From contig CAKUHB010000009.1 of assembly GCA_934655875.1 (NCBI GenBank), forward strand, positions 1 to 64,000: a DNA stretch of 64,000 bases, read 5' to 3'. Both the position numbers and the translations under genes were made by a program. Source of the stretch: an uncultured Oscillospiraceae bacterium. Its GTDB lineage: Bacteria; Bacillota; Clostridia; Oscillospirales; Oscillospiraceae. How positions within the stretch are numbered: the stretch's first letter is position 1; every line of letters begins with the position of its first letter. Under the pieces are notes generated by a model. The model had not been told where the DNA came from, made no database searches, and was given only the letters and a program-made list of their open reading frames with translations. Shown piece by piece: positions 11,760-35,275 of the stretch.

Positions 11760-11798
11760 ATGCGTGCGCATTTCGTGCCAACTTGGAGCGCAGCTGCA

Positions 11799-11830
11799 AC
11801 CTCCGCATCGAAAGATGCGGAGGTTTTTTG
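11799..11830 (+). terminator. Rho-independent terminator after the gntR-family gene
   Basis: The hairpin acctccgcatc-gaaa-gatgcggaggt is followed by TTTTTT. Confidence 0.65.
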
Positions 11831-11944
11831 CATCTTCCCCCCTTTGACTGTATTATCTCCGCGGATGGTTTTTGTCAAAATAGCTATTTTTTCGGGGCGG
11901 AAATTTATGAAAATGACGATTTCTCTATTATATGTTTATCGGGC

Positions 11945-12209: not shown

Positions 12210-15200
12210 ATGGCGATGATCAAGTGCAAGATGTGCGGCGGGGATTTAAACGTCGAAGAAAACAGCCAGATCGCAGTCTGCGAATACTGCGGGACGCAGC
12301 AGACCGTTCCGAAGCAGGATAACGAGAAGAAGCTGACGCTGTTTGCGCGTGCAAACCGGCTGCGCTTTGCCTGCGAATTTGATAAGGCGGCGGGCGTTTA
12401 TGAGTCCATCGTGGCGGAGTTCCCGGAGGAGGCGGAAGCCTATTGGGGGCTTGTGCTCTGCAAATACGGTATTGAATACGTTGACGATCCGGCGACGGGT
12501 AAAAAGGTTCCGACCTGCCACCGGTCGAGCTTTGACAGCGTTCTGGAGGACGCGAACTTTGAGCTGGTCATGGAATACGCCGACGTAGTCACGCGGAAGC
12601 TTTACCGCGAGGAAGCCAAGGCCATCGAGGAGCTGCGGCGCAGGATCATCGAGGTCTCCAGCCGTGAAGAGCCGTATGACATTTTCATCTGCTATAAAGA
12701 GACGGACGAAAACGGCCAGCGGACACTCGATTCCGTCCTGGCGCAGGATTTATATGACGCGCTGACGGAAAAGGGCTACCGGGTATTTTTCTCCCGCATT
12801 ACGCTGGAGGACAAGCTCGGGCAGGAATACGAGCCGTATATCTTCGCCGCGCTCAACTCCGCGCGCGTCATGCTGGCCGTCGGGACGGACTATGAGTATT
12901 TTAACGCCCCGTGGGTCAAGAACGAGTGGAGCCGGTATTTGCAGCGCATCGCCGCCGGGCAGAAGAAATCGCTCATCCCGTGCTATAAAAATATCGACGC
13001 CTACGACATGCCGAAGGAATTTGCAAAGCTGCAGGCACAGGATCTCGGCAAGGTCGGTGCAACGCAGGATCTACTGCGCGGGATCGACAAGCTGCTGGGG
13101 AAAACAAGCACTCCCGCGGTTCCGGTGCAGCCCGCTCCGATGCAGGCTGCTGCTGCGCCGAATGTTGATTCGCTTCTTCGCCGCGGCAATCTGTTTCTGG
13201 AGGACCGCGACTGGACGAACGCAAAAACCTACTTCGATAAGGTTCTGGATATCGTTCCGGAGTGCGGCGCGGCGTATCTGGGGAAATTTCTTGCTGCAAA
13301 GAAGGCAAAAACGGTCGCGTCGTTTGTCCGGCGCTATGTGGAAGACATTGCGGCCCATGCACCGGCGCGCACCCGGCAGGATGCCTGCAAGCCGGACGAG
13401 ACATTCATCGCTGCCTGTCTCAATAAGTATCAGGTGCCGGAATATCTGGACGCACGCGAAATCCGGTCTCTGCTGCGCTTCGATCTTACGTATCATGCCG
13501 GGCTTGCAGACTATTATCACGACTGCTTCCTGCGCGCGGCGCAGATGCTTGGCAGCGAAAAGGACTTTGTCCGTGCTGAAAAGTATGCTGACGCGGATGT
13601 GCAGACGCAATGCGAGCTGCTGCGCAGCAAAATCCTGAACGATCTTCATGCCCGGCAGCAGGCCGCGGAGCAGGAGGAAGCCGGCGAAAAGCAGCGCATC
13701 ACGGAAGCCTATCATACATTTTTAAAGGAAACCGAATCAACGCTCGCCGCACGGCAGAAGGAAGCGCTTGAAAAGAAGAAAGCGCATGACAAGCTCGCGG
13801 AACGGCTGCGGTTGGAACGGGAAAAGCACGAAAAAGCGGCAGCAATCGAGCGGGAAAAGCAGGAAAAGCTGAGAAAAATCGCCGAGCAGGAGGCAAAACA
13901 AAAGGCCGCAAAGGCCCGGAAGCTCACGATCATCGGCGGCACTGCGGCAGCTGTCATCCTCGCAGCCGTGTTGATCATTACAAAGGTCATGATTCCGTCG
14001 CAGAAATATGCCAACGCCGCAGCGCTGCTGGATGCCGGAAACTATGATGACGCCATTTCAGCCTTTGCCGCATTGGGCGAGTATAAGGATTCTGCTGCCA
14101 TGTGCAGCAGCGCCGCGCACGCAAAAGCCTATGCGGAAGCGGAAACACTGCTGGCCGCCGGAGATTATAAGGGCGCGAGCGCCGCATTCGCTGCATTGCA
14201 GGATTATAAGGACGCGGCAAGCCGCGCAGATGCCGCAAGAAGCCAGCAGCTTGAAGCGGAAAACGCACAGGCCTATGCAAATGCGGAAGCACTGCTGGAT
14301 GCCGGAAACTATGCTGCCGCTGCCAAGGCGTTCCAAGCACTCGGCGACTACAAGGACGCGGCAGAGCGTGCGCAGGACTGCCCGTACATAGAAGCCGAGC
14401 AGCTTCTGGCGCAGGGAAAAACCGCAGAAGCCTCCATTGCGTTTGGAAGAATTGCCGGATATAAGGATGCGCTGGAGCGGAGCTTTGCGCTGAGAGCTTC
14501 CAGCGATCCTACAATTATTGCGAAGGACGATCATATCGTTGCGCTGAAAGAGGACGGTACTGTAGTCGCCATCGGCAATAACGAGTATGGGCAATGCGAT
14601 GTTGCCGACTGGACGAATCTTGTGGCAATCGATGCAGGATTCCTCTATACGGTCGGCCTGAAAGCGGATGGGACTGTGCTTGCTGTGGGCTATAACGATG
14701 ATGGCCGATGCAATGTTTCCGATTGGACGGACATCACAGCGATCCGCGCCGGCAGCTATCACACGGTCGGCCTGAAAACAAATGGAACCGTCGTTGCTGT
14801 AGGAGACAACGACTTGGGTCAATGCGATGTTGCCGACTGGACAGATATTACTGCCATCAGTGCCAGAGAGCATCACACGGTCGGTCTCAAGGCAGATGGC
14901 ACGGTAGTCGCCGTGGGCTATAACAGGTTTGGCCAATGCGATGTTTCCGGCTGGACGGATATCGTGGCGATCAGCACGGGGTATAATCACACGGTCGGCC
15001 TGAAAGCAGACGGAACGGTGGTCGCCGCAGGAAATAACGAGGATGGACAATGCGATGTATCTGATTGGACAGATATTGTAGCAATCAAGGCAGCATACAA
15101 ACACACAGTCGGCTTGAAATCGGACGGAACCGTGGTCGCTGTTGGTTTTAATGAATATGGTCAGTGTGACGTTTCAGATTGGACAGATATGATAGCAATT

Positions 15201-15434
15201 GATGCAGCAACTTATCACACGGTTGGTCTGAAAGCGGATGGAACCGTCGTTGCCACAGGAAATAATGGCGATGGGCAATGCAATGTCTCCGATTGGACAG
15301 ATATCGTTGCGGTGAACGCTGGTGGGTGGAATACCGTCGGCCTGAAAGCAGACGGTACCGTGGTCGTTGTTGGCGGTAACGTCGATGACAAGTGCAATGC
15401 TTCCGGCTGGACGGATATCAGGCTCCCCAACTGA
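12210..15434 (+). CDS. Zinc-ribbon / TIR-domain / TPR / single-TM / RCC1-like beta-propeller protein, paralog 1
   Basis: 1074 aa with these regions: an N-terminal CxxC..CxxC ribbon (KCKMCGG…CEYCG); a TIR-like region (DIFICYKETD…GYRVFFSRITLED…APWVKNEWSRYL) carrying the W-x-x-N-E catalytic-Glu motif; TPR-like helices; an E/K/Q-rich coiled coil; a TM helix (LTIIGGTAAAVILAAVLIITKVMIP) with positive residues on its N side; four ~40-aa repeats (A.ALL.AG.Y..A..AF.ALG.YKDA); and about eight RCC1-like blades (HTVGLKADGTVVAVG.N..GQCDVSDWTDI). It ends in IRLPN. Confidence 0.85.
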   Translation: MAMIKCKMCGGDLNVEENSQIAVCEYCGTQQTVPKQDNEKKLTLFARANRLRFACEFDKAAGVYESIVAEFPEEAEAYWGLVLCKYGIEYVDDPATGKKVPTCHRSSFDSVLEDANFELVMEYADVVTRKLYREEAKAIEELRRRIIEVSSREEPYDIFICYKETDENGQRTLDSVLAQDLYDALTEKGYRVFFSRITLEDKLGQEYEPYIFAALNSARVMLAVGTDYEYFNAPWVKNEWSRYLQRIAAGQKKSLIPCYKNIDAYDMPKEFAKLQAQDLGKVGATQDLLRGIDKLLGKTSTPAVPVQPAPMQAAAAPNVDSLLRRGNLFLEDRDWTNAKTYFDKVLDIVPECGAAYLGKFLAAKKAKTVASFVRRYVEDIAAHAPARTRQDACKPDETFIAACLNKYQVPEYLDAREIRSLLRFDLTYHAGLADYYHDCFLRAAQMLGSEKDFVRAEKYADADVQTQCELLRSKILNDLHARQQAAEQEEAGEKQRITEAYHTFLKETESTLAARQKEALEKKKAHDKLAERLRLEREKHEKAAAIEREKQEKLRKIAEQEAKQKAAKARKLTIIGGTAAAVILAAVLIITKVMIPSQKYANAAALLDAGNYDDAISAFAALGEYKDSAAMCSSAAHAKAYAEAETLLAAGDYKGASAAFAALQDYKDAASRADAARSQQLEAENAQAYANAEALLDAGNYAAAAKAFQALGDYKDAAERAQDCPYIEAEQLLAQGKTAEASIAFGRIAGYKDALERSFALRASSDPTIIAKDDHIVALKEDGTVVAIGNNEYGQCDVADWTNLVAIDAGFLYTVGLKADGTVLAVGYNDDGRCNVSDWTDITAIRAGSYHTVGLKTNGTVVAVGDNDLGQCDVADWTDITAISAREHHTVGLKADGTVVAVGYNRFGQCDVSGWTDIVAISTGYNHTVGLKADGTVVAAGNNEDGQCDVSDWTDIVAIKAAYKHTVGLKSDGTVVAVGFNEYGQCDVSDWTDMIAIDAATYHTVGLKADGTVVATGNNGDGQCNVSDWTDIVAVNAGGWNTVGLKADGTVVVVGGNVDDKCNASGWTDIRLPN

Positions 15435-15455: not shown

Positions 15456-18400
15456 ATGGCAATTATTAAATGTAAGATGTGCGGCGGGGATATTGAGATC
15501 TCTGCGGACAAGACGTTTGGGACGTGCGAATACTGCGGCAGCACGATGACGCTGCCCAAAGTGGACGACGAGCAGCGGGCGGCGGCGTTTAACCGCGGCA
15601 ATCACTTTAGGCGCAGCGGCGAGTTTGACAAGGCGCTGGCCGTGTATGAGCGAATCGTTGCCGAGGACGACAACGACGCCGAAGCGCACTGGTGCTGCGC
15701 GCTGTGCCGGTTCGGCATTGAATATGTGGAGGATCCGGCGACGTATGAATGGCTGCCGACGTGCCACCGCGCGAGCTTCGACAGCTTCTTGGAGGACGTG
15801 GACTATCTGGCTGCGGTCGCGCATTCCGACGGCATCACCCGCCGCCAGTACCAGAAGGACGCAGCGAAAATCGCCGAGGTGCAGCGCGGGATTCTCGCCA
15901 CGTCGCAGAACGAGCAGCCGTTCGACGTCTTCCTCTGCTACAAGGAGACCGGCGAGGACGGCCAGCGCACGCGCGACAGCCTGATGGCGCAGGAGGTCTA
16001 TTACGAACTGACCGAGCAGGGCTACCGCGTATTCTTCGCGCGCATCACGCTGGAAGATAAAGCGGGCGCGGAATATGAACCGTATATCTTTGCGGCGCTG
16101 AACTCCGCGAAGGTCATGGTCGTGATCGGCACGAAGCCGGAGCATTTTAACGCCGTCTGGGTCAAGAACGAATGGAGCCGCTTCCTGTCCATGATGAAAA
16201 AGGATCGGAGCAAGCTGCTCCTGCCGTGCTACCGGGACATGGATCCGTATGACCTGCCGGAAGCACTGTCGGTGCTGCAAAGCTATGACATGAGCAAGAT
16301 CGGCTTCATGCAGGATCTGATCCGCGGCGTCAAAAAGGTGCTCGACGCGGGCAAACCGCAGGAGGCTGCGAAAGAAACGGTCAAGGAGACCGTCGTGGTA
16401 CATAACGAGGGCGGCAGCAACGTGCAGGCCCTGCTCAAGCGCGGCAACATGGCGCTGGAGGACGGCGAATGGAGCAAGGCAGACGAGTTCTTTGAGCAGG
16501 TACTCAATCAGGACGCGGAGTGCGGCGCGGCGTATCTGGGGAAGTTTTTGAGCAGCAGAAAAGCAAAAAGCGTGCAGGCGTATTTGCAGAGCTGTTGCAA
16601 AAGAATAGCAAGCAACGCGCCGACCGCACAAAAGAGCAGCGCCTGTGAGGAAGACAGCGCGTTTATCGATGCCTGCGTGAAAAAGTATCAGGTGCCGGAC
16701 TATTACACCCCGGAGGACATTCACAAGGCGCTTACCCATGACCGGCTCTACTGCGCGGATCGCGCGGCGTATTTCCGCGAAGCGCAGAAGGAGTTCAATC
16801 AAGCACTGAGCGCCGACCGGAACTTTGTCCGCGCGGAAAAATTCGCCGACAGCGAAACAAAAGCGCAGTGCGGCACACTGCGCAGCGAGACCATGACTCT
16901 CCTGCGTCAGCAGGAGCAGCAGGCAGAGCAGGAAGCGGCTGCGGAAAAGCAGCGCGTTACCGAGGCCTATCACGCGTTCTTGCGCGAGACTGAGCCAAAG
17001 CTGGCCGAGAAACAGAAGCAAGGTCTTGCGAAGCAGGAAGAGGATCAAAAACGCAAGGAGGAATTTGAACGCCTGCGCGCGGAACAGAAAAAGCGTGCAG
17101 AGGAAGCAGAGAAACTCGCCGCACAGGAAGCAGCGCTAAAGGCTGCAAAGGCAGCAAAGGCGAAAAAGCTTACGCTTATCTGTGCTGCGGTGGCTGCTGC
17201 TGTCATTGCGGTGGTGTTGATCGTCACTCAAGTCATCATCCCATCTGCAAACTATTCCAAGGCTGAGAAGCTGCTGACTGCTGGCGATTATGACAGCGCA
17301 ATCACGGCATTCGCAGCTCTAGGCAATTACAAGGACGCAGCGGAGAAGATTACGCAGGCAAAAGAGCAGAAAGAAAACGAGCGTCTTGCCAAAGAAGCAG
17401 CTGAGGAGGAAGCCAGAAACGCGCAGGCATATGCCGATGCAGAAGCGCTGCTGGCAAGCGGGGATTACGACGGTGCTATCGCTGCTTTTACAGATCTGGG
17501 CGAGTATCAGGATGCTGCCGACCGGGTAAAGGCCATAGAAGCACAGAAAGCCGAGGAAAAAGCCAAAAAGGTGGAAGCGAAAAATGCGCAGGCATATCAG
17601 GAAGCGGTTTCTCTGCTGGAAAGCGGTAATTATTCAAAAGCGTCTGACGCATTTGCTAAACTTGGCAGCTACAAAGATGCGGCTATTCGGCGGAAAGAGT
17701 GCCAGTATCAAATGGCCGACCAGCTTCAAAATGATGGCGATACTGCTGCCGCTGCGGTAACGTTTGGGAAAGCCTGTGGATTCAACGACGCAAAAGAGCG
17801 TAGTCTGGCACTCTGGAATGTCATTGCCAAAAGAGATGTTATTGCGGCAAGCTGGGGATACACCGTTGGAGTGAAAGCAGATGGGACAGTTGTTGCAACC
17901 GGTGAAAATGATGACGGGCAATGCAATGTATCCAAATGGAAAGATATTATCGCCGTAGCAGCTGGATACGGGCACACGGTCGGCTTGAAGGCAGATGGGA
18001 CCGTGGTCGCTACCGGAAATAATGATGATGGTCAATGCAACGTGTCCGGTTGGAGCAACATTGTCGCAGTTGCAGCAGGATCCAGCCACACAGTTGGTCT
18101 GAAAATTGACGGAACTGTTGTTACCGCTGGCAGCACCATATGCGGTGAATCTAATTGGAGCGATATTATTTCTATAGCAGCCAACACCATTGTGACAGTT
18201 GGTCTGAAAACAGACGGGACAGTAGTTGACAAACCTTCTTGGTATAGCATTACCGCAGTGGCAGCCGGCGGCGTACACACAGTTGGGCTTAAAATGGACG
18301 GAACAGTTATTGCCACTGGCAGCAACGACCATCGGCAATGCAACGTATCTGACTGGAATAATATTATCGCGGTGGCAGCAGGCACCGACCACACTGTTGC

Positions 18401-18608
18401 AGTGAAATCAAATGGCACTGTTGTTGCCGCCGGTGAGAACGAAGATGGTCAGTGCAATGTATCTGGTTGGAGTAGTATCATTGCCGTGGCAGCAGGGTTC
18501 GACCACACTGTTGGCTTGAAGTCAGACGGAACTGTCGTTGCGGCCGGTGATAATTATTACGGTCAATGCAACGTTTCCAACTGGAAGAACATCAAGCTCC
18601 CCAATTGA
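15456..18608 (+). CDS. Zinc-ribbon / TIR / TPR / TM / RCC1-like protein, paralog 2
   Basis: 1050 aa with the same architecture. TIR motifs FDVFLCYKETGEDGQRT…VWVKNEWSRFL. TM helix LTLICAAVAAAVIAVVLIVTQVII. The RCC1 blades run to the C-terminus, which ends NIKLPN. The 22-bp junction with paralog 1 (gaaagaaggacgagaagATGGCAATTAT) is near-identical to the next junction. Confidence 0.85.
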   Translation: MAIIKCKMCGGDIEISADKTFGTCEYCGSTMTLPKVDDEQRAAAFNRGNHFRRSGEFDKALAVYERIVAEDDNDAEAHWCCALCRFGIEYVEDPATYEWLPTCHRASFDSFLEDVDYLAAVAHSDGITRRQYQKDAAKIAEVQRGILATSQNEQPFDVFLCYKETGEDGQRTRDSLMAQEVYYELTEQGYRVFFARITLEDKAGAEYEPYIFAALNSAKVMVVIGTKPEHFNAVWVKNEWSRFLSMMKKDRSKLLLPCYRDMDPYDLPEALSVLQSYDMSKIGFMQDLIRGVKKVLDAGKPQEAAKETVKETVVVHNEGGSNVQALLKRGNMALEDGEWSKADEFFEQVLNQDAECGAAYLGKFLSSRKAKSVQAYLQSCCKRIASNAPTAQKSSACEEDSAFIDACVKKYQVPDYYTPEDIHKALTHDRLYCADRAAYFREAQKEFNQALSADRNFVRAEKFADSETKAQCGTLRSETMTLLRQQEQQAEQEAAAEKQRVTEAYHAFLRETEPKLAEKQKQGLAKQEEDQKRKEEFERLRAEQKKRAEEAEKLAAQEAALKAAKAAKAKKLTLICAAVAAAVIAVVLIVTQVIIPSANYSKAEKLLTAGDYDSAITAFAALGNYKDAAEKITQAKEQKENERLAKEAAEEEARNAQAYADAEALLASGDYDGAIAAFTDLGEYQDAADRVKAIEAQKAEEKAKKVEAKNAQAYQEAVSLLESGNYSKASDAFAKLGSYKDAAIRRKECQYQMADQLQNDGDTAAAAVTFGKACGFNDAKERSLALWNVIAKRDVIAASWGYTVGVKADGTVVATGENDDGQCNVSKWKDIIAVAAGYGHTVGLKADGTVVATGNNDDGQCNVSGWSNIVAVAAGSSHTVGLKIDGTVVTAGSTICGESNWSDIISIAANTIVTVGLKTDGTVVDKPSWYSITAVAAGGVHTVGLKMDGTVIATGSNDHRQCNVSDWNNIIAVAAGTDHTVAVKSNGTVVAAGENEDGQCNVSGWSSIIAVAAGFDHTVGLKSDGTVVAAGDNYYGQCNVSNWKNIKLPN

Positions 18609-18629: not shown

Positions 18630-21458
18630 ATGGCAATTATGAAATGTAAGATGTGCGGCGGGGATATTGAGATCTCGGCGGACAAGACCTTCGGAACGTG
18701 TGAATACTGCGGCAGCACGATGACGCTGCCGAAGACGGATGACGACCAGCGGCTGAGCTTATTCAACCGCGGCACGCATCTGCGGCGCAACGGTGAATTT
18801 GACAAGGCTGCGGCGATCTATGAGCGGCTGATCGGTGAGAACGACGCGGACGCGGAAGCGCACTGGAACCTGCTGCTCTGCCGGTACGGCATCGAGTATG
18901 TGCAGGATCCGGCCTCCGGCGAGCGTATCCCGACCTGCCACCGCGCGAGCTTTGACAGCATTCTGAACGATGTGGACTATCAGGCCGCGCTGCAATACTC
19001 CGACGGCGTGGCGCGGAGCCTGTATGAAAAGGAAGCGCAGCGCATTGCTGCGCTGCAAAGGGACATTCTGGCGATCTCGCAGAAGGAATCGCCGTTCGAC
19101 GTGTTCATCTGCTACAAAGAATCCGACGAGAACGGCAGGCGCACGAAGGATTCCGCGCTGGCGCAGGATATTTACTACCAGCTCACCGACGCGGGCTATA
19201 AGGTCTTCTTCGCGCGCATCACGCTGGAGGATAAGCTCGGACAGGAATACGAGCCGTATATCTTTGCCGCCCTGCACTCGGCAAAGGTCATGGTTGTGGT
19301 CGGCACGAAGCCGGAATACCTGAACGCTGTCTGGGTCAAAAACGAGTGGAGCCGGTATCTCGCGCTCATGCGCACCGACCGCAGCCGCCTGCTCATCCCC
19401 TGCTACCGCGATATGGATCCGTATGATATGCCGGAAGAGCTCAGCATGCTGCAAAGTCAGGACATGGGGCGGATCGGGTTCATTCAGGATCTCATCCGCG
19501 GCGTCAGAAAAGTCGTAGACGCGGCAAAGCCGCAGCCGGAGCAGCCGTCCGCCGCGGCGGACGCCGGGACGAAGACCGCGCCGCTCCTGCGCCGCGGCAC
19601 GCTCTTTCTGGAGGACGGCGACTGGGCCAACGCAAACCAGTATTTTGAAAAGGTGCTGGACGCCGCGCCGGAGTGCGCGGAAGCGTATCTCGGAAAATTC
19701 CTCGCGCAGAATCACGCAAAGTCCGCCGCGGACTATGCAAACGCCCGTCTTGCGGACATTGTCAGGCACGCGCCGTCCATCAAAAACACGGACGCGTGCG
19801 CGGCGGACGGTGCATTTATCTCCGCCTGCACAGAAAAATATCAGGTCGACGGATATCTGAGCAGTCAGGAGATCACCAGAATGCTTTCCGCCTTTGACCG
19901 GCAGTATTGCAGTCAGGCGGCCTATTACCGCACCGCGGCGGAGACGGCAAGAAGCGAACTGGACACAGACCGCAATCTGACCCGCGCCCGGCAGTTCGGC
20001 TCGGACAAGACCCGCGCCCAATGCCAGAGCATCTGCGACAGCCTGTTCGGCCCGCTGGCGGAAAAGCTCCGCCAGTGCGAAGAGGAAGACGCCCGCCAGG
20101 CGCGCAGCATCCGCGAGGACTACGCCGCCTTTCTGAAAAAGGCGGAGGAAAAAGTCACCGCACGCTCCGAGCAGCTGCGGCAGAAAGAAGCACAGGCACA
20201 GCTCGAGCAGGAGCGGCAGCAGCGCGAAGCGGAGGAAGCGGAGCGCCAGCGCCGTCTGGAGGAGCTTCACCAGCTGGCAAAGGCCCGCCGGAAACAGACG
20301 GCCAAAAAGATCGCCAGGGGCGCGGTCGTTGCCGGGCTGCTGCTGGCCGCGGCTCTCAGCTTTTTGAAGTTTGCGAACCGGAAGTATGATCAGGCGGTGG
20401 CGCTCGCCGCGGAGGGCAGCTATGCGCAGGCCGCGGAAGCGTTCGACGAGCTGAAAACCTACAGAGACAGCAAGGAGCAGTTCGCGGAGAACATGCGTCT
20501 GGCCGGAGAAGCGTATCTGGCGTCGGGCGAGACGGCGCGCGCCGCCATGTGCTACGCAAAGATCGGCGATCCGGAAAGCATGGAAAAAAGCTATGCGCTG
20601 TGGGACACGGTCGCGGTGCGGAAGACGATCTCCGTCGGATATAACTACACCGCCGCGTTGAAAGACGACGGCACGGTCGTATTTACCGACAGGCACGCGT
20701 TTGACTCCTCGCCCGCGGGCTGGCACGACATCATCGCGATCGCCTGCGGCGACGACCATCTGCTCGGCCTGCGGGCAGACGGCAGCGTCTGCGCAGCCGG
20801 ACGGAATACAAAAGGCGAATGCGACGTTTCCGACTGGAAAAACATCGTGGCGATTGCCGCAGGGATGGACTACTCGGTCGGCCTGCGGGCGGACGGAACG
20901 GTCGTCACGGCTGGACGGAAGGACAATGGCAACCACAAGACCGGCGACTGGACAGATATCGTAGCGATCGACGCCAAGAGCCTACAGGCCGTCGCCCTGA
21001 AAGCGGACGGAACCGTGATCATGACCGGGGATACGGATAGTGAGAAGACGCTGGTGGAAAGCTGGACGGATATCAAGGCGATCTCGGCCGGATGGTTCCA
21101 CACGGTCGGGATCAAGCAGGACGGAACAGTCGTTGCGGCGGGACATGACACCGATGGTGCCTGCGACGTCGGCAGCTGGAGCAATATCTGCGCAGCGGTC
21201 GGCGGCGGAAGCACAAAGTTTGACTACACGATCGGTCTGCGGACGGACGGCACGCTGGTCGTGACGCGTCCGGAAAGCGTGGAAGCCGGCTCCGCACGTG
21301 ACATTGCCGGCTGGAGCAGCATTGTCGCAGTTGCGACAGGCACAGATACGGAAAAGCTCACCCTTGGTCTGCGGTCGGACGGCACGGTCGTCGCCGTGGG
21401 CGATACGGACGGCATTGATCTGAGCGAATGGACAAATATCAAGCTCCCAAACAGATAA
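18630..21458 (+). CDS. Zinc-ribbon / TIR / TPR / TM / divergent RCC1-like protein, paralog 3
   Basis: 942 aa. The N-terminal ~300 aa are about 80-90% identical to paralog 2 at the start. TIR motifs FDVFICYKESDENGRRT…VWVKNEWSRYL. TM helix VVAGLLLAAALSFLKFA. There are fewer YKDA repeats, and the propeller blades are degenerate (several lack the GQC motif). It ends NIKLPNR. Confidence 0.85.
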   Translation: MAIMKCKMCGGDIEISADKTFGTCEYCGSTMTLPKTDDDQRLSLFNRGTHLRRNGEFDKAAAIYERLIGENDADAEAHWNLLLCRYGIEYVQDPASGERIPTCHRASFDSILNDVDYQAALQYSDGVARSLYEKEAQRIAALQRDILAISQKESPFDVFICYKESDENGRRTKDSALAQDIYYQLTDAGYKVFFARITLEDKLGQEYEPYIFAALHSAKVMVVVGTKPEYLNAVWVKNEWSRYLALMRTDRSRLLIPCYRDMDPYDMPEELSMLQSQDMGRIGFIQDLIRGVRKVVDAAKPQPEQPSAAADAGTKTAPLLRRGTLFLEDGDWANANQYFEKVLDAAPECAEAYLGKFLAQNHAKSAADYANARLADIVRHAPSIKNTDACAADGAFISACTEKYQVDGYLSSQEITRMLSAFDRQYCSQAAYYRTAAETARSELDTDRNLTRARQFGSDKTRAQCQSICDSLFGPLAEKLRQCEEEDARQARSIREDYAAFLKKAEEKVTARSEQLRQKEAQAQLEQERQQREAEEAERQRRLEELHQLAKARRKQTAKKIARGAVVAGLLLAAALSFLKFANRKYDQAVALAAEGSYAQAAEAFDELKTYRDSKEQFAENMRLAGEAYLASGETARAAMCYAKIGDPESMEKSYALWDTVAVRKTISVGYNYTAALKDDGTVVFTDRHAFDSSPAGWHDIIAIACGDDHLLGLRADGSVCAAGRNTKGECDVSDWKNIVAIAAGMDYSVGLRADGTVVTAGRKDNGNHKTGDWTDIVAIDAKSLQAVALKADGTVIMTGDTDSEKTLVESWTDIKAISAGWFHTVGIKQDGTVVAAGHDTDGACDVGSWSNICAAVGGGSTKFDYTIGLRTDGTLVVTRPESVEAGSARDIAGWSSIVAVATGTDTEKLTLGLRSDGTVVAVGDTDGIDLSEWTNIKLPNR

Positions 21459-21473
21459 GAGAGGAAGAACGCA

Positions 21474-23333
21474 ATGAGCAAATTTGTAATTGAATGCCCC
21501 AAATGCGGGAAATACGCCGAAGCCAGCACCGGCCTGTTTGCAAAACGGAGGATCCCCTGCACGTGCGGGCACGCCATCGACGTGCGTACGGAACGGCTCG
21601 CGACCCGCGAATGCCCGCACTGCGGCAATACCGTCCTCTATGACCAGTCCAAGGGCGAAAAGGCGCTCTGCCCCGTCTGCCATACGCCGGTCAACACGAC
21701 GGCCCTTCAGCTCAAGACCGTGGAATTTTCCTGCGCGCAGTGCGGCATCCAGCTGCACGCGAGCAAGGCGGATACGACCTGCATCTGCCCCGTCTGCGGC
21801 TGCGAGAACGACGTGGAGCAGCGCGTCACGACCGACCGGATCAAAAAGGACGGTCTTGCCAGCATCATCAAATACGAGGGCGACAACGAGACCTTCGTCT
21901 GGAAGCACCCGATCGAGGACTTCAACTTCGGCTCGCAGCTGATCGTCCATGAGAGTCAGGAAGCGATCTTCTTCCGCGACGGGCAGGCACTCGACCTCTT
22001 CGGCGCGGGCCGCTACACGCTGCAAACGCAGCAGCTGCCGCTGCTGGAGAAGATCTACAAGCTCCCGACCGACACCGAGGGCACGTTCCATTCCGAGGTC
22101 TATTTCATCAACCTCGCCACCCAGATGGGCGTCAAATGGGGCACGGACAGCAAAGTCCGGATGTTTGACCCTGCGTCCCACCTGCCGATCGAGATCGGCG
22201 CGTCGGGCGAATTTAATATCCGCGTGACCGACTCGCGCAAGCTTCTTTTGAAGGTCGTCGGCACGACGGGCGGGCTTGGGCAGGAGCAGCTGCTGGGCAT
22301 CGGGAACGGCAAGGGCTTCTTCCGCTCGATGGTCATGACGCAGGTGAAAAGCTACCTTGCGCAGACGATCAAGGAAAACGCCATCGACATTCTGGAGATC
22401 GACGAGCACCTCATGGCGCTCTCCGGCGCGCTGCGCGAGCGGATCAACGCCGCGCTGGATGAATACGGCCTGACGATGCCGGAATTTTACGTCAGCCGTA
22501 TCGTAACGCCGGACGACGACCCCAATTTCCGCCGCATGAAGGAGCAGCACGCCGAGCAGTATCTGCTCGTCCGGCAGGAGAACATCCGCAAAGCCGAAGC
22601 CGAAGCCGCGGCAGGCCGCAAGGCGGTCGAAGCGCAGACGGCTGCCCACCTGAAGATCATCGGCGCGCAGGGCGACGCGGAAGCACTCAAGATCCAGAAG
22701 CAGGCCGAAGCCGAAGCCTATCGCATGCAGGCCGAAGCCGAAGCCGCCGAAATGCACATGAAGGGCTACAGCTATCAGCAGGAGTCCGCCCGGCAGGTCG
22801 GTCTGGAAGCGATGAAAAATGGCCTTGGCGGCGGCGCGAATGCTGCGGGCGCGCTGGGCGATCTCGCGGGGCTTGGTGTAAGTCTTGGCGCAATGGGCAG
22901 TGTCATCGGCATGACGAAGGATGCGCTGAACCCCATGACGCAGGACGCCGCGCAGATGGGCGCGGCCGTCGGTGCAGCCGGCACAGGCGGCTGGGACTGC
23001 CCGGCGTGCGGACACAAAAACATCACCACGAACTTCTGCCCCGACTGCGGCGGCAAAAAGCCCGAAGCAAAAACCGGCTGGGACTGCGCACAGTGCGGCA
23101 CAAAGAACATCCAGAGCAGATTCTGCCCGAACTGCGGCGCAAAGAAGCCGGAGGAGCCGAAGGGCTGGATCTGCCCGGACTGCGGCACGAAAGATATCAC
23201 GACGAACTTCTGCCCCAACTGCGGCACGAAGAAGCCGGAGGCGCCAAAGGGCTGGATCTGCCCGGACTGCGGCACGAAGGATATCATGACGAACTTCTGC
23301 CCGAACTGCGGACGGAAGAAGGAGGAGACATAA
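21474..23333 (+). CDS. SPFH/band-7 (YdjI-like) protein with three N-terminal and four C-terminal zinc ribbons
   Basis: 619 aa. N-terminal CPKCG…CTCGH, CPHCGN…CPVCH and CAQCG…CPVCGC ribbons precede a central SPFH-like domain (…FVWKHPIEDFNFGSQLIVHESQEAIFFRDGQALD…) and an A/E/Q-rich coiled coil. Four tandem 29-aa repeats GW(D/I)CP.CG.K.I...FCP.CG.KKPE, about 87 bp each, make up the 22985-23330 DNA region. Confidence 0.8.
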   Translation: MSKFVIECPKCGKYAEASTGLFAKRRIPCTCGHAIDVRTERLATRECPHCGNTVLYDQSKGEKALCPVCHTPVNTTALQLKTVEFSCAQCGIQLHASKADTTCICPVCGCENDVEQRVTTDRIKKDGLASIIKYEGDNETFVWKHPIEDFNFGSQLIVHESQEAIFFRDGQALDLFGAGRYTLQTQQLPLLEKIYKLPTDTEGTFHSEVYFINLATQMGVKWGTDSKVRMFDPASHLPIEIGASGEFNIRVTDSRKLLLKVVGTTGGLGQEQLLGIGNGKGFFRSMVMTQVKSYLAQTIKENAIDILEIDEHLMALSGALRERINAALDEYGLTMPEFYVSRIVTPDDDPNFRRMKEQHAEQYLLVRQENIRKAEAEAAAGRKAVEAQTAAHLKIIGAQGDAEALKIQKQAEAEAYRMQAEAEAAEMHMKGYSYQQESARQVGLEAMKNGLGGGANAAGALGDLAGLGVSLGAMGSVIGMTKDALNPMTQDAAQMGAAVGAAGTGGWDCPACGHKNITTNFCPDCGGKKPEAKTGWDCAQCGTKNIQSRFCPNCGAKKPEEPKGWICPDCGTKDITTNFCPNCGTKKPEAPKGWICPDCGTKDIMTNFCPNCGRKKEET

Positions 23334-25010
23334 ATGGCGGCAAAGCTGGAATGTGAAATCTGCGGCGGCAAGCTGATCGGCAAGCCCGGCGGCATCTTCG
23401 AGTGCGATTCCTGCGGCATGGAGTATTCCACCGAATGGGCCAAGGCCAAAATTCAGGAAATCAAAGGCACGGTCAAGGTCGAGGGCACGGTCGAGGTCAC
23501 CGGCAAGGTACAGGTCGAAGGCGGCACAGTGCAGGTCGAGGGCGCGGTGACAAAAGAGAGTCTTCTCAAGCGCGCGGAGATGTGCTGCGCGGAGAAGGAC
23601 TGGGGCAAAGCAAAGGCGCTGATTGAACAGGTTCTGAATATCGACCCGGAGTGCGGCGAAGCGTATCTGACCTCGGTGATGGTAGAGCGGGTCATGCAGT
23701 CAAAAGAAGACCTCCACGCATACTGCACCAACGCCATCCTTCCTCTGCCGCAAGGGAAAAACATGGAGCGCGCACAGCAGTTCCTGCCGGAGCTTTTTGC
23801 ACAATGGAAAGAAGAAAAAGAGCGCAACTACGCAGCGTATCTTAAGAAATACGAGGAAAGCGGCGCAGCGCAGCTGCGTGCGCGCTATGCAAAGACAGAT
23901 GGACTGCTGGTCTGTGGGTATCCCGGCCTGCTCGGGATTCGAACAGACGGAACTGTTCTGGTATCGGCAACAGAAACGCGGGAGCCGGACGCCGCCGCGA
24001 TCCGGCAGTGGGATGAGATCACAACAATTGCTTGCGGCGTGAATCATACAGTTGGCCTTCGGGCAGACGGCACAGTCGTCGCCGTTGGAAAAAATGGTAG
24101 CGGCCAGTGCAATGTTGAGAAATGGCGAAACATCACAGCAATTGCTTGCGGCGGGAATCATACAGTTGGCCTTCGGGCAGACGGTACGGTCGTTGCTGTC
24201 GGAGCAAATGAAAATGGACAGTGCAATGTCAGGGACTGGCGGGACGTCACAGCAATTGCTTGCGGCGATAGCCATACGGCTGGTCTTCGGGCAGACGGTA
24301 CGGTCGTTGCAGCCGGATGCAATGAAGAGCAGTGCAATGCCATCAAGGGCTGGCGGGATATTACCGCAATCGCCTGTAGCGGATCCCATACCGTCGGTCT
24401 CCGGGCAGACGGCACAGCGGCTGCGACAGACTATCCGAATTGTGAAAACTGGCGCGACGTTGTCTCGCTTGTGTGCAATGGCGAGTATGGTCTGCGGAAG
24501 AACGGGACGCTTGCGCCGAGCTGGGGCAATCTGTGCTGCGGCTGGTCGGACATTATCGCCGTTTCGGGTTATGGCAGTCATATCTCCGCGCTGCGCAGCG
24601 ACGGAACGGTTATATGCGCTGGCGGCGGAGAAAGCCAAAAGTGGACGGATATCGTCAGCATTTGCAGCATCCTCGATAAGGTGTATGGCATACGGAAAGA
24701 CGGTACCGTCGTGGCGGCTGGCGAATCTCATAGAGATGTTTCCGGCTGGCGCTTATTTAACAGTATTGATACCTTGGAACAGGAGCGCACGAAAGGACTG
24801 GCACGTGCCCGGGCCGAACACCTTGCAAAGGAAAAGGCCAAAGCTGATCGCATCGCACAGAAAAAAGCAGAGCTTCAGGCTGAACGGGACGAACTGCAAG
24901 CAGAGCTTTCGCAGCTCAAGGGGCTGTTTTCCGGCAAGCGCCGAAAAGAAATTGAACTTCTGCTGACCGTCAACCGGTATGAGCTTCAGGAATTGGAGGA
25001 ACAGGCATGA
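23334..25010 (+). CDS. Soluble zinc-ribbon / TPR / RCC1-like repeat protein (no TIR, no TM)
   Basis: 558 aa with an N-terminal CEICGG…CDSCG ribbon, a (K/T)VEGTV repeat, one TPR-like unit, at least 7 RCC1-like blades (NHTVGLRADGTVVAVG.N..GQCNV..W.DITAIACG) and a C-terminal coiled coil. The start overlaps the preceding stop (TAAATGG). Confidence 0.8.
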   Translation: MAAKLECEICGGKLIGKPGGIFECDSCGMEYSTEWAKAKIQEIKGTVKVEGTVEVTGKVQVEGGTVQVEGAVTKESLLKRAEMCCAEKDWGKAKALIEQVLNIDPECGEAYLTSVMVERVMQSKEDLHAYCTNAILPLPQGKNMERAQQFLPELFAQWKEEKERNYAAYLKKYEESGAAQLRARYAKTDGLLVCGYPGLLGIRTDGTVLVSATETREPDAAAIRQWDEITTIACGVNHTVGLRADGTVVAVGKNGSGQCNVEKWRNITAIACGGNHTVGLRADGTVVAVGANENGQCNVRDWRDVTAIACGDSHTAGLRADGTVVAAGCNEEQCNAIKGWRDITAIACSGSHTVGLRADGTAAATDYPNCENWRDVVSLVCNGEYGLRKNGTLAPSWGNLCCGWSDIIAVSGYGSHISALRSDGTVICAGGGESQKWTDIVSICSILDKVYGIRKDGTVVAAGESHRDVSGWRLFNSIDTLEQERTKGLARARAEHLAKEKAKADRIAQKKAELQAERDELQAELSQLKGLFSGKRRKEIELLLTVNRYELQELEEQA

Positions 25011-25746: not shown

Positions 25747-25790
25747 GGCGGGCCTGATATTCCGGGAATATCAGGCCCGCTTTGTGCTTC
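25747..25790 (+). terminator. Rho-independent terminator of the TIR/RCC1 operon
   Basis: Perfect hairpin gcgggcctgatatt-ccggg-aatatcaggcccgc followed by TTTGTGCTTCTT. Confidence 0.75.

Positions 25791-35271: not shown

Positions 35272-35275
<4 letters not shown>
33506..35275 (+). CDS. atpA: F0F1 ATP synthase alpha subunit with an N-terminal fused delta (OSCP) C-terminal-domain remnant
   Basis: 589 aa. Residues ~95-589 are canonical alpha, including the Walker A GDRQTGKT. Residues ~8-85 ([67 protein letters not shown]) align with the C-terminal domain of delta subunits (…VYS..PLSEQEL..L…G..V…G.R..DGSVSGQL). No separate atpH ORF lies between atpF and atpA. Confidence 0.85.

Follow-up and report, generated by a model that had tools for sequence, protein, structure and literature searches.

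In a gut bacterium of the Clostridia, three adjacent genes encode tandem TIR-domain paralogs (p1, p2 and p3) that belong to a very large, apparently unstudied family, in which a hyper-conserved zinc ribbon-TPR-TIR head is joined to hypervariable tails. The paralogs are probably an array of receptors with a TIR output, for conflict or immunity. The reading that we favour, with a probability of about 0.55, draws on sequence and structural models: the receptors would span the membrane with the head inside and the tail outside (N-in/C-out), would cleave NAD+ when triggered by a ligand, and would have the products of two genes of the same operon, g4 and g6, as partners. The literature searched contained no paper on this TIR family or its architecture, which is not proof of absence, and no biochemical or genetic data on any family member.

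Organization of the operon

The window (the whole stretch of DNA that was analysed, 64,000 nucleotides) contains three open reading frames (ORFs) of 1074, 1050 and 942 residues, which lie head to tail on the + strand and are followed by g4, g5 and g6. The six genes form an operon of 13.5 kb, and the gaps between them are, in order, 21, 21, 15, 0 and -4 nucleotides. The operon and its borders comprise the following elements.

11798-11825, + strand: terminator-like hairpin of the upstream GntR gene (12-bp stem plus T run)
11827-11856, + strand: promoter-like site 3' of the GntR hairpin (9/12 promoter match)
12210-15434, + strand: p1, 1074 residues (ORF, Pfam matches and full-length AF2 model)
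15456-18608, + strand: p2, 1050 residues, architecture as p1 (TIR domain ~15921-16337, WVKNE motif 16158-16172, transmembrane helix ~17169-17240)
18630-21458, + strand: p3, 942 residues, architecture as p1 with a single YKDA-type repeat (TIR domain ~19095-19511, WVKNE motif 19332-19346, transmembrane helix ~20310-20375)
21474-23333, + strand: g4, soluble SPFH (Band_7_1) protein with zinc ribbons at the N- and C-terminus
23334-25010, + strand: g5, TIR-less protein with a zinc ribbon, TPR-like part, RCC1 propeller and C-terminal coiled coil, no transmembrane helix
25007-25702, + strand: g6, 231-residue membrane protein with a C-terminal helical tail
25747-25781, + strand: terminator-like hairpin 45 nucleotides past g6 (16-bp stem)

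The hairpin and promoter-like site at 11798-11856 are the likely 5' boundary of the operon, and the hairpin at 25747-25781 its likely 3' boundary. An origin of these reading frames by chance or as ORF artefacts is ruled out, as several independent contigs encode exactly these proteins and the family runs to thousands.

The genes around the operon in the window are metabolic or housekeeping (a GntR regulator, an aminotransferase, ATP synthase), with no obvious defence island. None of 11 flank genes of the window has a counterpart near the gene cluster in any of 77 related loci. The genomic context thus varies, which may reflect a mobile island or ordinary rearrangement. PADLOC identified no known defence system in the window, with weak TIR-level matches only (PDC-S66, E ~1e-5) and none for g4-g6, and searches of the operon genes with PADLOC, PHROGs and NCBIfam linked none of them to a known phage family or defence system. 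Matches to PDC-S66, ThcB4, YbgF, LysW and DUF1145 were below threshold and were dismissed.

The conserved head and its TIR domain

From the N-terminus, p1 consists of a zinc ribbon, TPR-like helices, the TIR domain, a TPR/alpha-beta domain, a helix of ~100 residues, a transmembrane (TM) helix, YKDA repeats and an RCC1 propeller. The full-length AF2 model of p1 has a pLDDT of 80.8. The segments of p1 are located as follows.

12225-12290, + strand: N-terminal zinc ribbon, C6-x2-C9 ... C24-x2-C27
12675-13090, + strand: TIR domain, residues 156-294 (Pfam TIR_2 match at residues 158-282; model fold; Foldseek)
12912-12926, + strand: W235-V-K-N-E239, WxxxE motif with the putative catalytic glutamate
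13923-13994, + strand: TM helix, residues 572-595 (19-residue hydropathy 2.58; five K/R before, two after)
13995-14498, + strand: juxtamembrane YKDA-type helical repeats, residues 596-763, predicted to be outside
14514-15431, + strand: RCC1-like beta-propeller, residues 769-1074, predicted to be outside

The zinc ribbon folds into beta hairpins in the AlphaFold model of p1, and its four cysteines are retained by p1, p2 and p3 alike and conserved across the family samples. In family sample A5, C6, C9 and C27 never vary and C24 is kept in at least 90% of sequences; in samples A1, A2 and A7, C24 is invariant.

The TIR domain is recognized by Pfam TIR_2 (PF13676) at residues 158-282 of p1, 158-281 of p2 and 158-279 of p3, with scores of 48.4, 39.8 and 48.2 bits (E 1.6e-12, 7.6e-10 and 1.8e-12), all above the gathering score of 28 bits. 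Every relative in three samples (50/50, 50/50 and 58/58) matches the same profile. The secondary structure of the AF2 model alternates between beta and alpha elements over residues 158-296, in the flavodoxin-like order betaA-alphaA-betaB-BB loop-alphaB-betaC-alphaC-betaD-alphaD-betaE-alphaE of the TIR superfamily, and Foldseek superposes the model on solved TIR domains with a probability of 1.0 and a target TM-score of 0.5-0.65 (ROQ1, MAL, L6, MyD88, PdTIR, BtTir, AbTir, TcpB and SPARTA). The domain has the TIR_2 fold and flexible BB loop common to bacterial TIR NADases and immune TIRs (BtpA/TcpB, AbTir, PdTIR, ThsB and the SPARTA TIR-APAZ protein), the loop being disordered in the AlphaFold model, while its sequence identity to solved TIRs is only 15-23%. 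Unlike the known bacterial TIRs, it sits in a conserved head of ~560 residues made of zinc ribbon and TPR elements, and is followed by hypervariable tails of repeats, some with a TM helix and some lacking one. An earlier note on this DNA had placed the domain at 12675-13090, which corresponds to residues 156-294 of p1, and had located its equivalents in p2 and p3 correctly to within ~10 nucleotides. The sequence motifs that it quoted are also present, namely (D/F)(I/V)F(I/L)CYKE at residue 157 (nucleotides 12678, 15924 and 19098), GY(R/K)VFF(S/A)RITLEDK and WVKNEWSR(Y/F)L.

The WVKNE motif occupies residues 235-239 in each of p1, p2 and p3, in agreement with the earlier claim of a TIR domain with this invariant element in all three. 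E239 lies in the first turn of alphaC (helix 234-248), after betaC, in the AlphaFold model. phmmer aligned W235-V-K-N-E239 with W-P-A-R-E of Brucella BtpA/TcpB, where W213/E217 is the catalytic WxxxE motif and NAD loss is abolished by E217A (PMC7188309). E239 of the paralogs is thus in register with E217 of BtpA, at the active-site position. A TIR-only family profile searched against the PDB, used for motif register only, placed WVKNE on W-C-L-M-E of flax L6/L7 and W-C-Q-Y-E of TLR15/TLR2, in a consistent register; the E-values were weak (0.08-0.7), as a family this uniform does not yield a sensitive profile. A whole-head profile was swamped by TPR and low-complexity matches and was uninformative on the TIR domain. 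The motif is WVKNE in 148 of 150 cluster representatives and WVRNE in the other two; among 107 genomic paralogs, the counts are 103 WVKNE, three WVRNE and one WTKNE. Judged from alignment and model, the glutamate of WVKNE occupies the catalytic position of NADase-type TIRs. Its designation as the element with the putative catalytic glutamate is supported, but the 'W-C-x-N-E' signature to which it had been likened is no recognised motif, the canonical form being WxxxE. A retained glutamate is necessary, not sufficient, for TIR NADase activity.

The family comprises 7245 clusters at E<=1e-3 and 4087 at E<=1e-30, and occurs in many copies in Clostridia of the rumen and other animal guts. The head is ~77% identical across Clostridia families, and g4 and g6 are ~58-60% and ~43% identical in the same loci. 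The tails consist of unrelated binding repeats, which include RCC1, DUF6273, BspA-type LRR, LRR_8, Ank, MORN and WG repeats. A locus contains one to five paralogs, and TM and soluble forms are mixed in 19 of the 29 loci with more than one. The size of the family, its TM-less members and the operon partners (the SPFH gene and the 4-TM gene) had been missed by the earlier note.

Operon partners and their bearing on function

The g4 protein matches Pfam Band_7_1 (E 1.7e-36), Zn_ribbon_3 and DZR, and has no TM helix. The g6 protein contains about four hydrophobic helices by reading of the sequence, two of which pass the 19-residue hydropathy scan, and it has no family match in Pfam, PADLOC, PHROG or NCBIfam; we therefore do not claim it as a homologue of YdjH or NfeD. 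Homologues of g4 and g6 are found in 49-51 and 45-47, respectively, of the 77 related loci, and g6 lies directly 3' of g4 in nearly all loci with both, whereas g5 is located between them here. This g4-g6 pair, in ~60% of the 77 loci, is the sole other recurrent family. Its pairing with the paralogs differs from known TIR systems, which are paired with ThsA, STING, SAVED or Argonaute. The g5 protein has an RCC1_2 match (E 2e-33, Pfam), and its N-terminal part matches the TIR paralogs and TIR-less ORFs of related loci.

A SIR2-like gene, absent from the window, is present in eight of the 77 loci, and in six of these eight it lies between a TIR paralog and g4. Its protein resembles LmuA in PADLOC (matches in 4/6 members, best 3.7e-8) and ThsA (8.5e-7; PDB ThsA 6lhx, E 0.022). 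In Thoeris, ThsB TIR proteins signal to ThsA, and an analogous pathway can be envisaged here, in which the TIR domain would make a nucleotide messenger (a cADPR isomer or similar) for the SIR2-like protein, for g4/g6 or for an unlinked effector. The SIR2-like gene inside the operon in these eight loci would fit such a pathway, as would the conserved partners g4 and g6 and the weak NCBIfam similarity of the TIR domain to type III ThcB4. We nonetheless regard it as rather doubtful, since the SIR2-like gene is missing from the window and from ~90% of the loci, its product of ~300 residues has no detectable SLOG or Macro domain, and profile searches detected none of the sensors of TIR-made nucleotides (SLOG, Macro, STING, SAVED) in g4-g6. 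Membership in Thoeris itself is rejected: PADLOC matched neither ThsB nor ThsA in the window, the ThcB4 match, at 20.6 bits, lies far below its cutoff of 220, and the SIR2-like gene is confined to 8/77 loci.

The g4 protein is also similar to the SPFH protein of the B. subtilis YdjI/SamI module (pspA-ydjGHI), as both are soluble and of Band_7_1 type with zinc-ribbon and low-complexity C-terminal parts; we take YdjI to belong to PF13421. The SPFH protein YdjI carries a zinc finger at its C-terminus; membrane proteins recruit it, and it acts in the Psp response to membrane stress (PMC8581546; PMC9239133). It is encoded with the membrane proteins YdjG and YdjH, much as g4 is near the small membrane-protein gene g6, and YdjI-type SPFH partners have been linked to membrane stress, not immunity (PMC8581546). 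The paralog operon differs from this module in that it has no PspA gene and that g4 has extra N-terminal zinc ribbons, and the literature searched did not connect the YdjI/SamI module with TIR proteins. By this comparison, the paralogs could serve in housekeeping surveillance or scaffolding of the membrane with a YdjI-like SPFH protein, the TIR head being an interaction module whose glutamate is regulatory or otherwise not that of an NADase. Such a role would agree with the constant association with a zinc-ribbon SPFH protein of Band_7_1 type, the extreme conservation of the head, the very wide distribution of the family in Clostridia and the lack of a PADLOC defence call. It is unlikely given that the W and E of the catalytic motif are near-invariant, that recognition under conflict typically involves hypervariable tails and arrays of paralogs, that some operons contain a SIR2-like gene of abortive-infection type, and that the genomic context varies; moreover, homologues of PspA, YdjG and YdjH were not seen among the operon genes scanned.

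Membrane topology, tails and comparison with known receptors

Each paralog contains a single hydrophobic segment (residues 572-590 in p1 and p2, 561-579 in p3) with scores of 2.1-3.1, where a TM helix was called at a 19-residue Kyte-Doolittle hydropathy above 1.6. As the earlier note had observed, K/R residues are concentrated just N-terminal of this helix, with 5-6 in the 15 residues before it versus 2-3 after, and no signal peptide is present in p1-p3, whose N-terminus is instead the CxxC...CxxC zinc ribbon. The same positive-inside bias is seen in nearly all of 50 single-TM relatives. The YKDA repeats, modeled by AF2 as helical hairpins in p1, sit between the TM helix and the propeller. They follow the TM helix in 32 of the 50 single-TM relatives, versus 18 of 81 TM-less ones, and start 15-29 residues past it in 30 of these 32. 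The RCC1_2 match is strongest in p1 (E 2.4e-55, seven stretches; 4e-46 in p2 and 1e-26 in p3, Pfam), and the beta blades of p1 at residues 769-1017 have pLDDT above 90.

Independent evidence on the topology comes from the relatives of the C-terminal half. Of the kinases among its best 120 matches, 22 of 23, all of Hanks type, have the order kinase-TM-(YKDA)-RCC1, with 50-68% identity to the p1 tail over up to 92% of its length. In a further 33 relatives, the propeller is preceded by an N-terminal signal or anchor segment. The predicted N-in/C-out arrangement, with the head in the cytoplasm and the YKDA repeats and propeller outside, is thus well supported computationally by the single TM helix, the K/R bias, the lack of a signal peptide, the folded zinc ribbon at the N-terminus and the occurrence of the same cassette after Hanks-type kinases. 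This is the arrangement that the earlier note had predicted.

Cysteine content was considered as a further test of topology. It is lower in post-TM regions (1.5%) than in TM-less tails (2.3%, p 6e-4), which is the expected direction, yet the post-TM parts are still Cys-rich: those of the paralogs contain 1.7-2.1% cysteine (one per blade), versus 0.31% in the adjacent secreted SLH protein g7. In addition, ~55% of 150 sampled cluster representatives have no TM helix and carry the same types of tail domain, RCC1 included; the tails of these members are presumably cytoplasmic. Since the same tail types occur without a TM helix in these proteins and in g5, these tails need not lie outside the cell to function.

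The hydrophobic segment might then anchor the protein while the propeller is poorly exported or acts at the cytoplasmic face, with no outside-in sensing. The Cys-rich post-TM part, the low AlphaFold confidence of the TM segment, and the presence of the same propeller on TM-less paralogs and on g5 point in this direction, as does the absence of a TM helix from 8 of the 11 TIR-bearing proteins nearest to the p1 propeller. We consider this quite unlikely: a single helix with a hydropathy of 2.1-3.1 puts the two ends on opposite sides, export of a zinc-ribbon head without a signal is implausible, the positive-inside bias extends across 50 relatives, the YKDA module goes together with the TM helix, and the very same cassette is found behind Hanks-type kinase domains as well as behind signal peptides. 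A role as host-directed effectors like BtpA/TcpB or TcpC, acting on host TLR signalling or NAD+, is highly improbable, even though Brucella TcpB is the best PDB sequence match and the bacteria are gut-associated, as these proteins of 600-1300 residues have no secretion signal, have the TIR domain on the cytoplasmic side of the TM helix, are arrayed with SPFH and 4-TM partners, and are also encoded in many copies by Clostridia of the rumen and other animal guts.

In the preferred reading, that of N-in/C-out receptors with a TIR output, a ligand (a phage particle, another surface-contacting non-self entity or an envelope cue) would bind the hypervariable tail. Binding would alter the oligomeric state of the cytoplasmic head, relayed through the long helix, and gather the TIR domains into an active assembly that cleaves NAD+, resulting in NAD+ depletion or an ADP-ribose-derived signal. 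At the membrane, the receptors may be joined by the co-transcribed g4 (SPFH/zinc-ribbon) and g6 proteins, in the role of a scaffold, a regulator or an effector. The array of tandem paralogs and the mixture of membrane and soluble forms in related loci would represent receptors of differing specificity that face outside and inside. More tentatively, hypervariable ectodomains of RCC1, LRR, DUF6273 and other types might detect phage particles, neighbour cells or host factors at the surface of gut Clostridia and switch on a TIR NADase with an SPFH scaffold, with soluble paralogs watching the cytoplasm.

PknB/PknD-type bitopic Ser/Thr kinases have an N-in/C-out topology. The paralogs have the same predicted polarity and logic, and the layout of p1-p3 would be that of a bacterial receptor Ser/Thr kinase in which a TIR domain replaces the kinase as output. 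Such a kinase is a closer analogue of the paralogs than the animal Toll-like receptors (TLRs). Like TLRs, the paralogs are predicted to combine an ectodomain built of repeats with a single TM helix and a TIR domain inside the cell, and some family members have LRR tails. TLRs, however, are type I proteins with N-terminal LRRs and a C-terminal TIR, whereas the paralogs are predicted to be type II, with the TIR at the N-terminal side within a large extra cytoplasmic head. The LRR horseshoe of TLRs is replaced by the RCC1 propeller and YKDA repeats in the window paralogs, and the output, through adaptors in TLRs, is likely enzymatic here. The TLR-like layout described in the earlier note thus holds as an analogy for p1-p3; it does not define the family, given the ~55% of sampled members without a TM helix, the proteins as a whole are not homologous to TLRs, and nothing points to a shared origin of the full architecture.

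To our knowledge, all characterised bacterial TIR systems (Thoeris, TIR-STING, TIR-SAVED, SPARTA and AbTir-like) act on intracellular cues. If the outside-in reading is correct, these paralogs would be the first prokaryotic TIR system to sense extracellular ligands across the membrane, a functional analogue of TLRs on the chassis of bacterial receptor kinases, and the layout of repeat sensor, one TM helix and TIR domain would have arisen independently of animal TLRs. With thousands of members, the family would bring bacterial surface sensing into the scope of TIR biology, and abundant gut commensals would offer many natural pairs of receptor and ligand. Cultured relatives include Pseudoflavonifractor capillosus An827, Eubacterium xylanophilum ATCC 35991 and Lachnospiraceae bacterium NE2001, and with an operon as compact as this one the hypotheses are therefore directly testable.

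Three TIR paralogs and the position of their glutamate

The three paralogs (p1, p2 and p3) are arranged head to tail on the + strand and align over their full length, p2 and p3 being 52% and 46% identical to p1, respectively.

The paralogs and their WVKNE motifs (window coordinates)
12210-15434, + strand: p1, ORF of 1074 aa
15456-18608, + strand: p2, ORF of 1050 aa
18630-21458, + strand: p3, ORF of 942 aa
12912-12926, + strand: WVKNE sequence motif of p1
16158-16172, + strand: WVKNE sequence motif of p2
19332-19346, + strand: WVKNE sequence motif of p3

Pfam identifies a TIR_2 domain at residues 158–282 of p1, 158–281 of p2 and 158–279 of p3, with scores of 48.4, 39.8 and 48.2 bits, respectively (gathering score of 28 bits). 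TPR-type repeats flank this domain on both sides, and RCC1_2 repeats occupy the C-terminal part (E-values of 2e-55 for p1, 4e-46 for p2 and 1e-26 for p3). The region that the earlier note had singled out, 12675-13090, corresponds to residues 156–294 of p1 and is the TIR domain; all of the motifs quoted there were found, with WVKNE at residues 235–239 in each paralog. p1–p3 are members of the TIR superfamily, and the catalytic-type features that can be checked by computation are present.

The best phmmer matches of the p1 TIR region among all PDB sequences are to Brucella TcpB/BtpA (4lzp and 4lqc, E-values of 0.003–0.006), with "fnapWvknEwsr" of p1 paired with "fskqWparEldg". W213 and E217 of BtpA form a "conserved catalytic WxxxE motif", and the E217A mutation abolishes both toxicity and NAD loss (PMC7188309). 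A profile of the family TIR region pairs WVKNE with W-C-L-M-E of flax L6/L7 and W-C-Q-Y-E of TLR15/TLR2; these matches are weak (E-values of 0.08–0.7) and their register is identical. The glutamate of the L6 motif is the catalytic E135. SARM1 has W-V-H-K-E, in which the glutamate is E642.

The AlphaFold2 model of p1 residues 1–330 (70-sequence alignment, mean pLDDT of 78.7) consists of strands βA (158–163), βB (192–197), βC (220–225) and βD (254–259), and helices αA (173–187), αB (208–217), αC (234–248) and αE (284–296), with a BB loop (198–206) of low confidence. The predicted order of these elements is the canonical TIR succession and, given the extent of αC, W235 and E239 would be located in its first turn. 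Foldseek matches to the PDB are almost exclusively TIR domains (ROQ1, MAL, L6, MyD88, PdTIR, SPARTA TIR-APAZ, BtTir, AbTir and TcpB), with a probability of 1.0 and target TM-scores of 0.5–0.65. The phmmer and profile alignments, the model and Foldseek thus agree on the catalytic position proposed earlier for the WVKNE glutamate, while the signature invoked for it, W-C-x-N-E, should read WxxxE, which is the recognised motif. We are highly confident that p1–p3 contain a TIR domain with a catalytic-type glutamate; its retention is necessary for NADase activity, yet no proof of it.

Three residues of p1, C84, C103 and H104 (residues 84–104, window 12459-12521), are invariant across the family and adjoin a β-hairpin (88–103) of the helical domain at the N-terminus. 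In βA, C161 is invariant or nearly so, varying with the sample. Together these residues may constitute a second site for metal binding or a cluster sensitive to redox state beside the TIR domain.

A conserved head with diverse tails

The first 480 residues of p1 match at least 8000 clusters of the 90% database, and an HMMER scan, exhaustive over 1.84 billion 50%-identity representatives, gives a family of 7245 proteins at E≤1e-3, of which 4087 remain at E≤1e-30. Judged by sequence identity, the head (the zinc ribbon-TPR-TIR part) is extraordinarily conserved: residues 1–300 of p1 are 60–83% identical to representatives that, by construction, are <50% identical overall. Across 77 related genomic loci, the median identity to the p1 head is 77%, with lower values for two partner genes of the operon, g4 (SPFH protein, 58–60%) and g6 (small membrane protein, 43%). 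WVKNE is found in 148 of the 150 cluster representatives sampled, the remaining two having WVRNE; of 107 genomic paralogs, 103 have it. Head identity is 54–56% between p1 and either of the other two paralogs and 73% between p2 and p3, so that the array holds two head subtypes. The p1 head (12210-13109) is of a "mainstream" type, with up to 95% identity to other genomes; close counterparts of the p2 and p3 heads (15456-16355 and 18630-19529) occur in near relatives only.

The tails (C-terminal parts), by contrast with the heads, are mutually unrelated. In three sets of 50, 50 and 58 members, Pfam assigns RCC1_2 to ∼16–26% of members, DUF6273 to ∼16–20%, and BspA-type LRR_5 and LRR_8 to ∼6–10% each, with Ank, FNIP, MORN and WG repeats, Flg_new and RHS being rarer. 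DUF6273 is terminal in, for example, family member P0123, which lies outside the window. Papers describe, to judge by their titles, DUF6273 in phage receptor-binding proteins and in DGR-rich Faecalibacterium prophages, a link through which diversity-generating retroelements might act on some TIR receptors.

Among the 150 representatives, the distribution of maximum hydropathy has two clear modes; 83 of the proteins lack a TM helix, 50 carry a single one and 17 carry more than one. Presence of a TM helix is optional across the family, and the tail repertoire is essentially equal in the sets with and without it. Hosts include Oscillospiraceae, Lachnospiraceae, Ruminococcus, Acutalibacteraceae, Christensenellales and Solobacterium, with sources in the human gut, the rumen and the guts of other animals; the closest genome match (78% identical) is from an uncultured Oscillospiraceae bacterium. 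No source that we checked gives these proteins a name.

Predicted membrane topology

Each of p1–p3 has only one segment above the threshold of 1.6 in a 19-residue Kyte-Doolittle scan (residues 572–590 in p1 and p2, and 561–579 in p3; scores of 2.1–3.1). The 15 residues preceding this TM helix contain 5–6 Lys/Arg, compared to 2–3 in those following it, and the N-terminus is a zinc ribbon (C6xxC9...C24xxC27), which bears out the earlier description of proteins that lack a signal peptide and carry basic residues N-terminal of a single TM helix. A single TM helix places the two ends on opposite sides of the membrane and, since export of a 560-residue zinc-binding head without a signal is implausible, N-in/C-out is the only reasonable topology, which we consider probable for p1–p3.

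The family agrees with this assignment. In nearly all of the 50 single-TM representatives, the N-terminal flank contains 4–11 Lys/Arg and the C-terminal flank 0–4. Helical repeats of the YKDA type (pattern Y..A...F..L..Y.D) follow the TM helix in 32 of the 50, starting 15–29 residues past it in 30 of these 32, and are present in just 18 of 81 TM-less members, a frequency and spacing by which TM helix and YKDA repeats behave as a single cassette.

Independent support is strongest from relatives of the C-terminal half. Hanks-type Ser/Thr kinases account for 23 of the 120 closest relatives of p1 residues 596–1074; in 22 of them, the kinase is followed by a single TM helix, (YKDA repeats) and the RCC1 propeller. 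Another 33 start with a signal or anchor segment, after which comes the propeller, often together with surface repeats of the Flg_new_2 type, and a further 35 have an internal TM helix ahead of it. Receptor kinases of the PknB/PknD type are N-in/C-out. In layout, p1–p3 resemble a bacterial receptor kinase whose output domain has been replaced, the TIR domain taking the position of the kinase. They are not TLRs, from which they differ by their opposite polarity and by the kind of ectodomain.

The rival to this topology would be a propeller that does not function outside the cell. Among the 11 TIR-bearing proteins most closely related to the p1 propeller, eight lack a TM helix; g5, a gene of the p1–p3 operon itself, likewise combines a zinc ribbon and an RCC1 propeller without one. 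The post-TM regions of p1–p3 still contain 1.7–2.1% Cys, compared to a very low 0.31% in g7, a secreted VWA/SLH protein encoded 3' of the operon. Across the family, median Cys is 1.5% in post-TM regions versus 2.3% in TM-less tails (Mann-Whitney p = 6e-4).

In the AlphaFold2 model of full-length p1 (30 sequences, mean pLDDT of 80.8), a TPR and small α/β domain C-terminal of the TIR (319–458, pLDDT >90) is followed by a single unbroken helix (462–561) rich in Glu, Lys, Arg and Ala, a TM segment modeled at low confidence, helical hairpins corresponding to the YKDA repeats (594–763), and, from residue 769, a β-propeller with regular three-stranded blades (pLDDT >90). The long helix, predicted to lie directly before the membrane, is an obvious candidate to transmit or enforce oligomerisation.

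Operon, partner genes and proposed mechanism

The gaps between successive genes from p1 to g6 are 21, 21, 15, 0 and -4 nt.

Other features of the operon (window coordinates)
11798-11856: 12-bp terminator-like hairpin and promoter-like site, upstream of the operon
21474-23333: g4, soluble SPFH protein (Band_7_1, E-value 1.7e-36) with a zinc ribbon at each end
23334-25010: g5, TIR-less relative with zinc ribbon, RCC1 propeller and C-terminal coiled coil; no TM helix
25007-25702: g6, 231-aa membrane protein with about four hydrophobic helices (by eye) and a helical tail; no family match found
25747-25781: 16-bp hairpin, 3' of g6

Searches by phmmer and all-against-all clustering recover only three recurrent families in the 77 loci: TIR proteins (77 loci, 1–5 copies each), g4 (49–51) and g6 (45–47), the latter two accompanying TIR paralogs in ∼60% of loci. 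In nearly every locus with both, g6 is immediately 3' of g4 on the TIR-gene strand; one or two cluster genes intervene in the window, where the gene is g5, and in at least three loci (L011, L013 and L036). Of the 29 loci that have two or more complete paralogs, 19 combine membrane-spanning and soluble ones. g5 also has a G/V/E-rich β stretch, a "PECGxAYL" TPR-like element common to the TIR paralogs and 4.1% Cys; similar TIR-less genes adjoin g6 in several loci (e.g. L013, L025, L028, L046, L054 and L071).

A SIR2-like gene of ∼300 aa lies within the cluster in eight of the 77 loci, between a TIR paralog and g4 in six of the eight; the window lacks it.

SIR2-like genes in related loci (locus, coordinates)
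L071: 12450-13367
L027: 4893-5765
L018: 12725-13651
L006: 13376-14407
L005: 1829-2734
L033: 8553-9530

SIR2_2 and AbiH of Pfam fall below threshold in this gene, four of six members match LmuA in PADLOC (best E-value 3.7e-8; ThsA 8.5e-7), and a profile search of the PDB finds ThsA 6lhx with an E-value of 0.022. Its presence in some loci ties the cluster to NAD+ biology of the abortive-infection type.

We propose that p1–p3 form a ligand-driven receptor array with TIR output and g4/g6 as partners, a picture to which we assign a probability of roughly 55%. The tail would bind a ligand, outside the cell for p1–p3 and inside it for soluble relatives; the heads would then cluster or rearrange so that the TIR domains assemble into an active oligomer, whose cleavage of NAD+ would lead to NAD+ depletion or signal production, with g4 and g6 organising or executing the response at the membrane. 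For a role in immunity or conflict, the odds seem about even. Thoeris-like second-messenger signalling is the nearest rival: the ThsA-related matches occur in related loci, and the window itself does not qualify as Thoeris, with no ThsB or ThsA match there, the ThcB4 model scoring 20.6 bits compared to the 220 required. A non-enzymatic membrane-stress scaffold with SPFH could account for g4, which resembles YdjI/SamI of the B. subtilis PspA membrane-stress operon, a soluble SPFH protein that carries a zinc finger at its C-terminus and is recruited by the membrane proteins YdjG/YdjH in the PspA response (PMC8581546; PMC9239133); the conserved glutamate argues for the enzymatic receptor array. 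A host-directed effector, compatible with gut habitats, fits poorly with heads predicted to stay in the cytoplasm and ranks last.

A literature search of incomplete coverage, such that an earlier description is possible, returned no account of the TIR family of p1–p3, of a bacterial TIR-RCC1 or TIR-SPFH linkage, or of membrane-spanning bacterial TIR receptors. Outside-in TIR signalling, proposed here from sequence, would be striking if true.

None of the 11 genes flanking the operon recurs near the cluster in the 77 loci. Past the terminator-like hairpin, 25978-29919 encodes g7 (1313 aa), an S-layer-anchored protein that comprises a signal peptide, a VWA domain, Flg_new/InlB B-repeats and three SLH domains; it has a match near the cluster in one of the 77 loci by phmmer and in none by blastp, and is not conserved there. 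Further downstream, an ATP synthase α-subunit ORF (33506-35275, 589 aa) has a weak N-terminal OSCP/δ-subunit match (residues 3–77, E-value 8e-4), and is either a δ-α fusion or an ORF whose start was called too far upstream.
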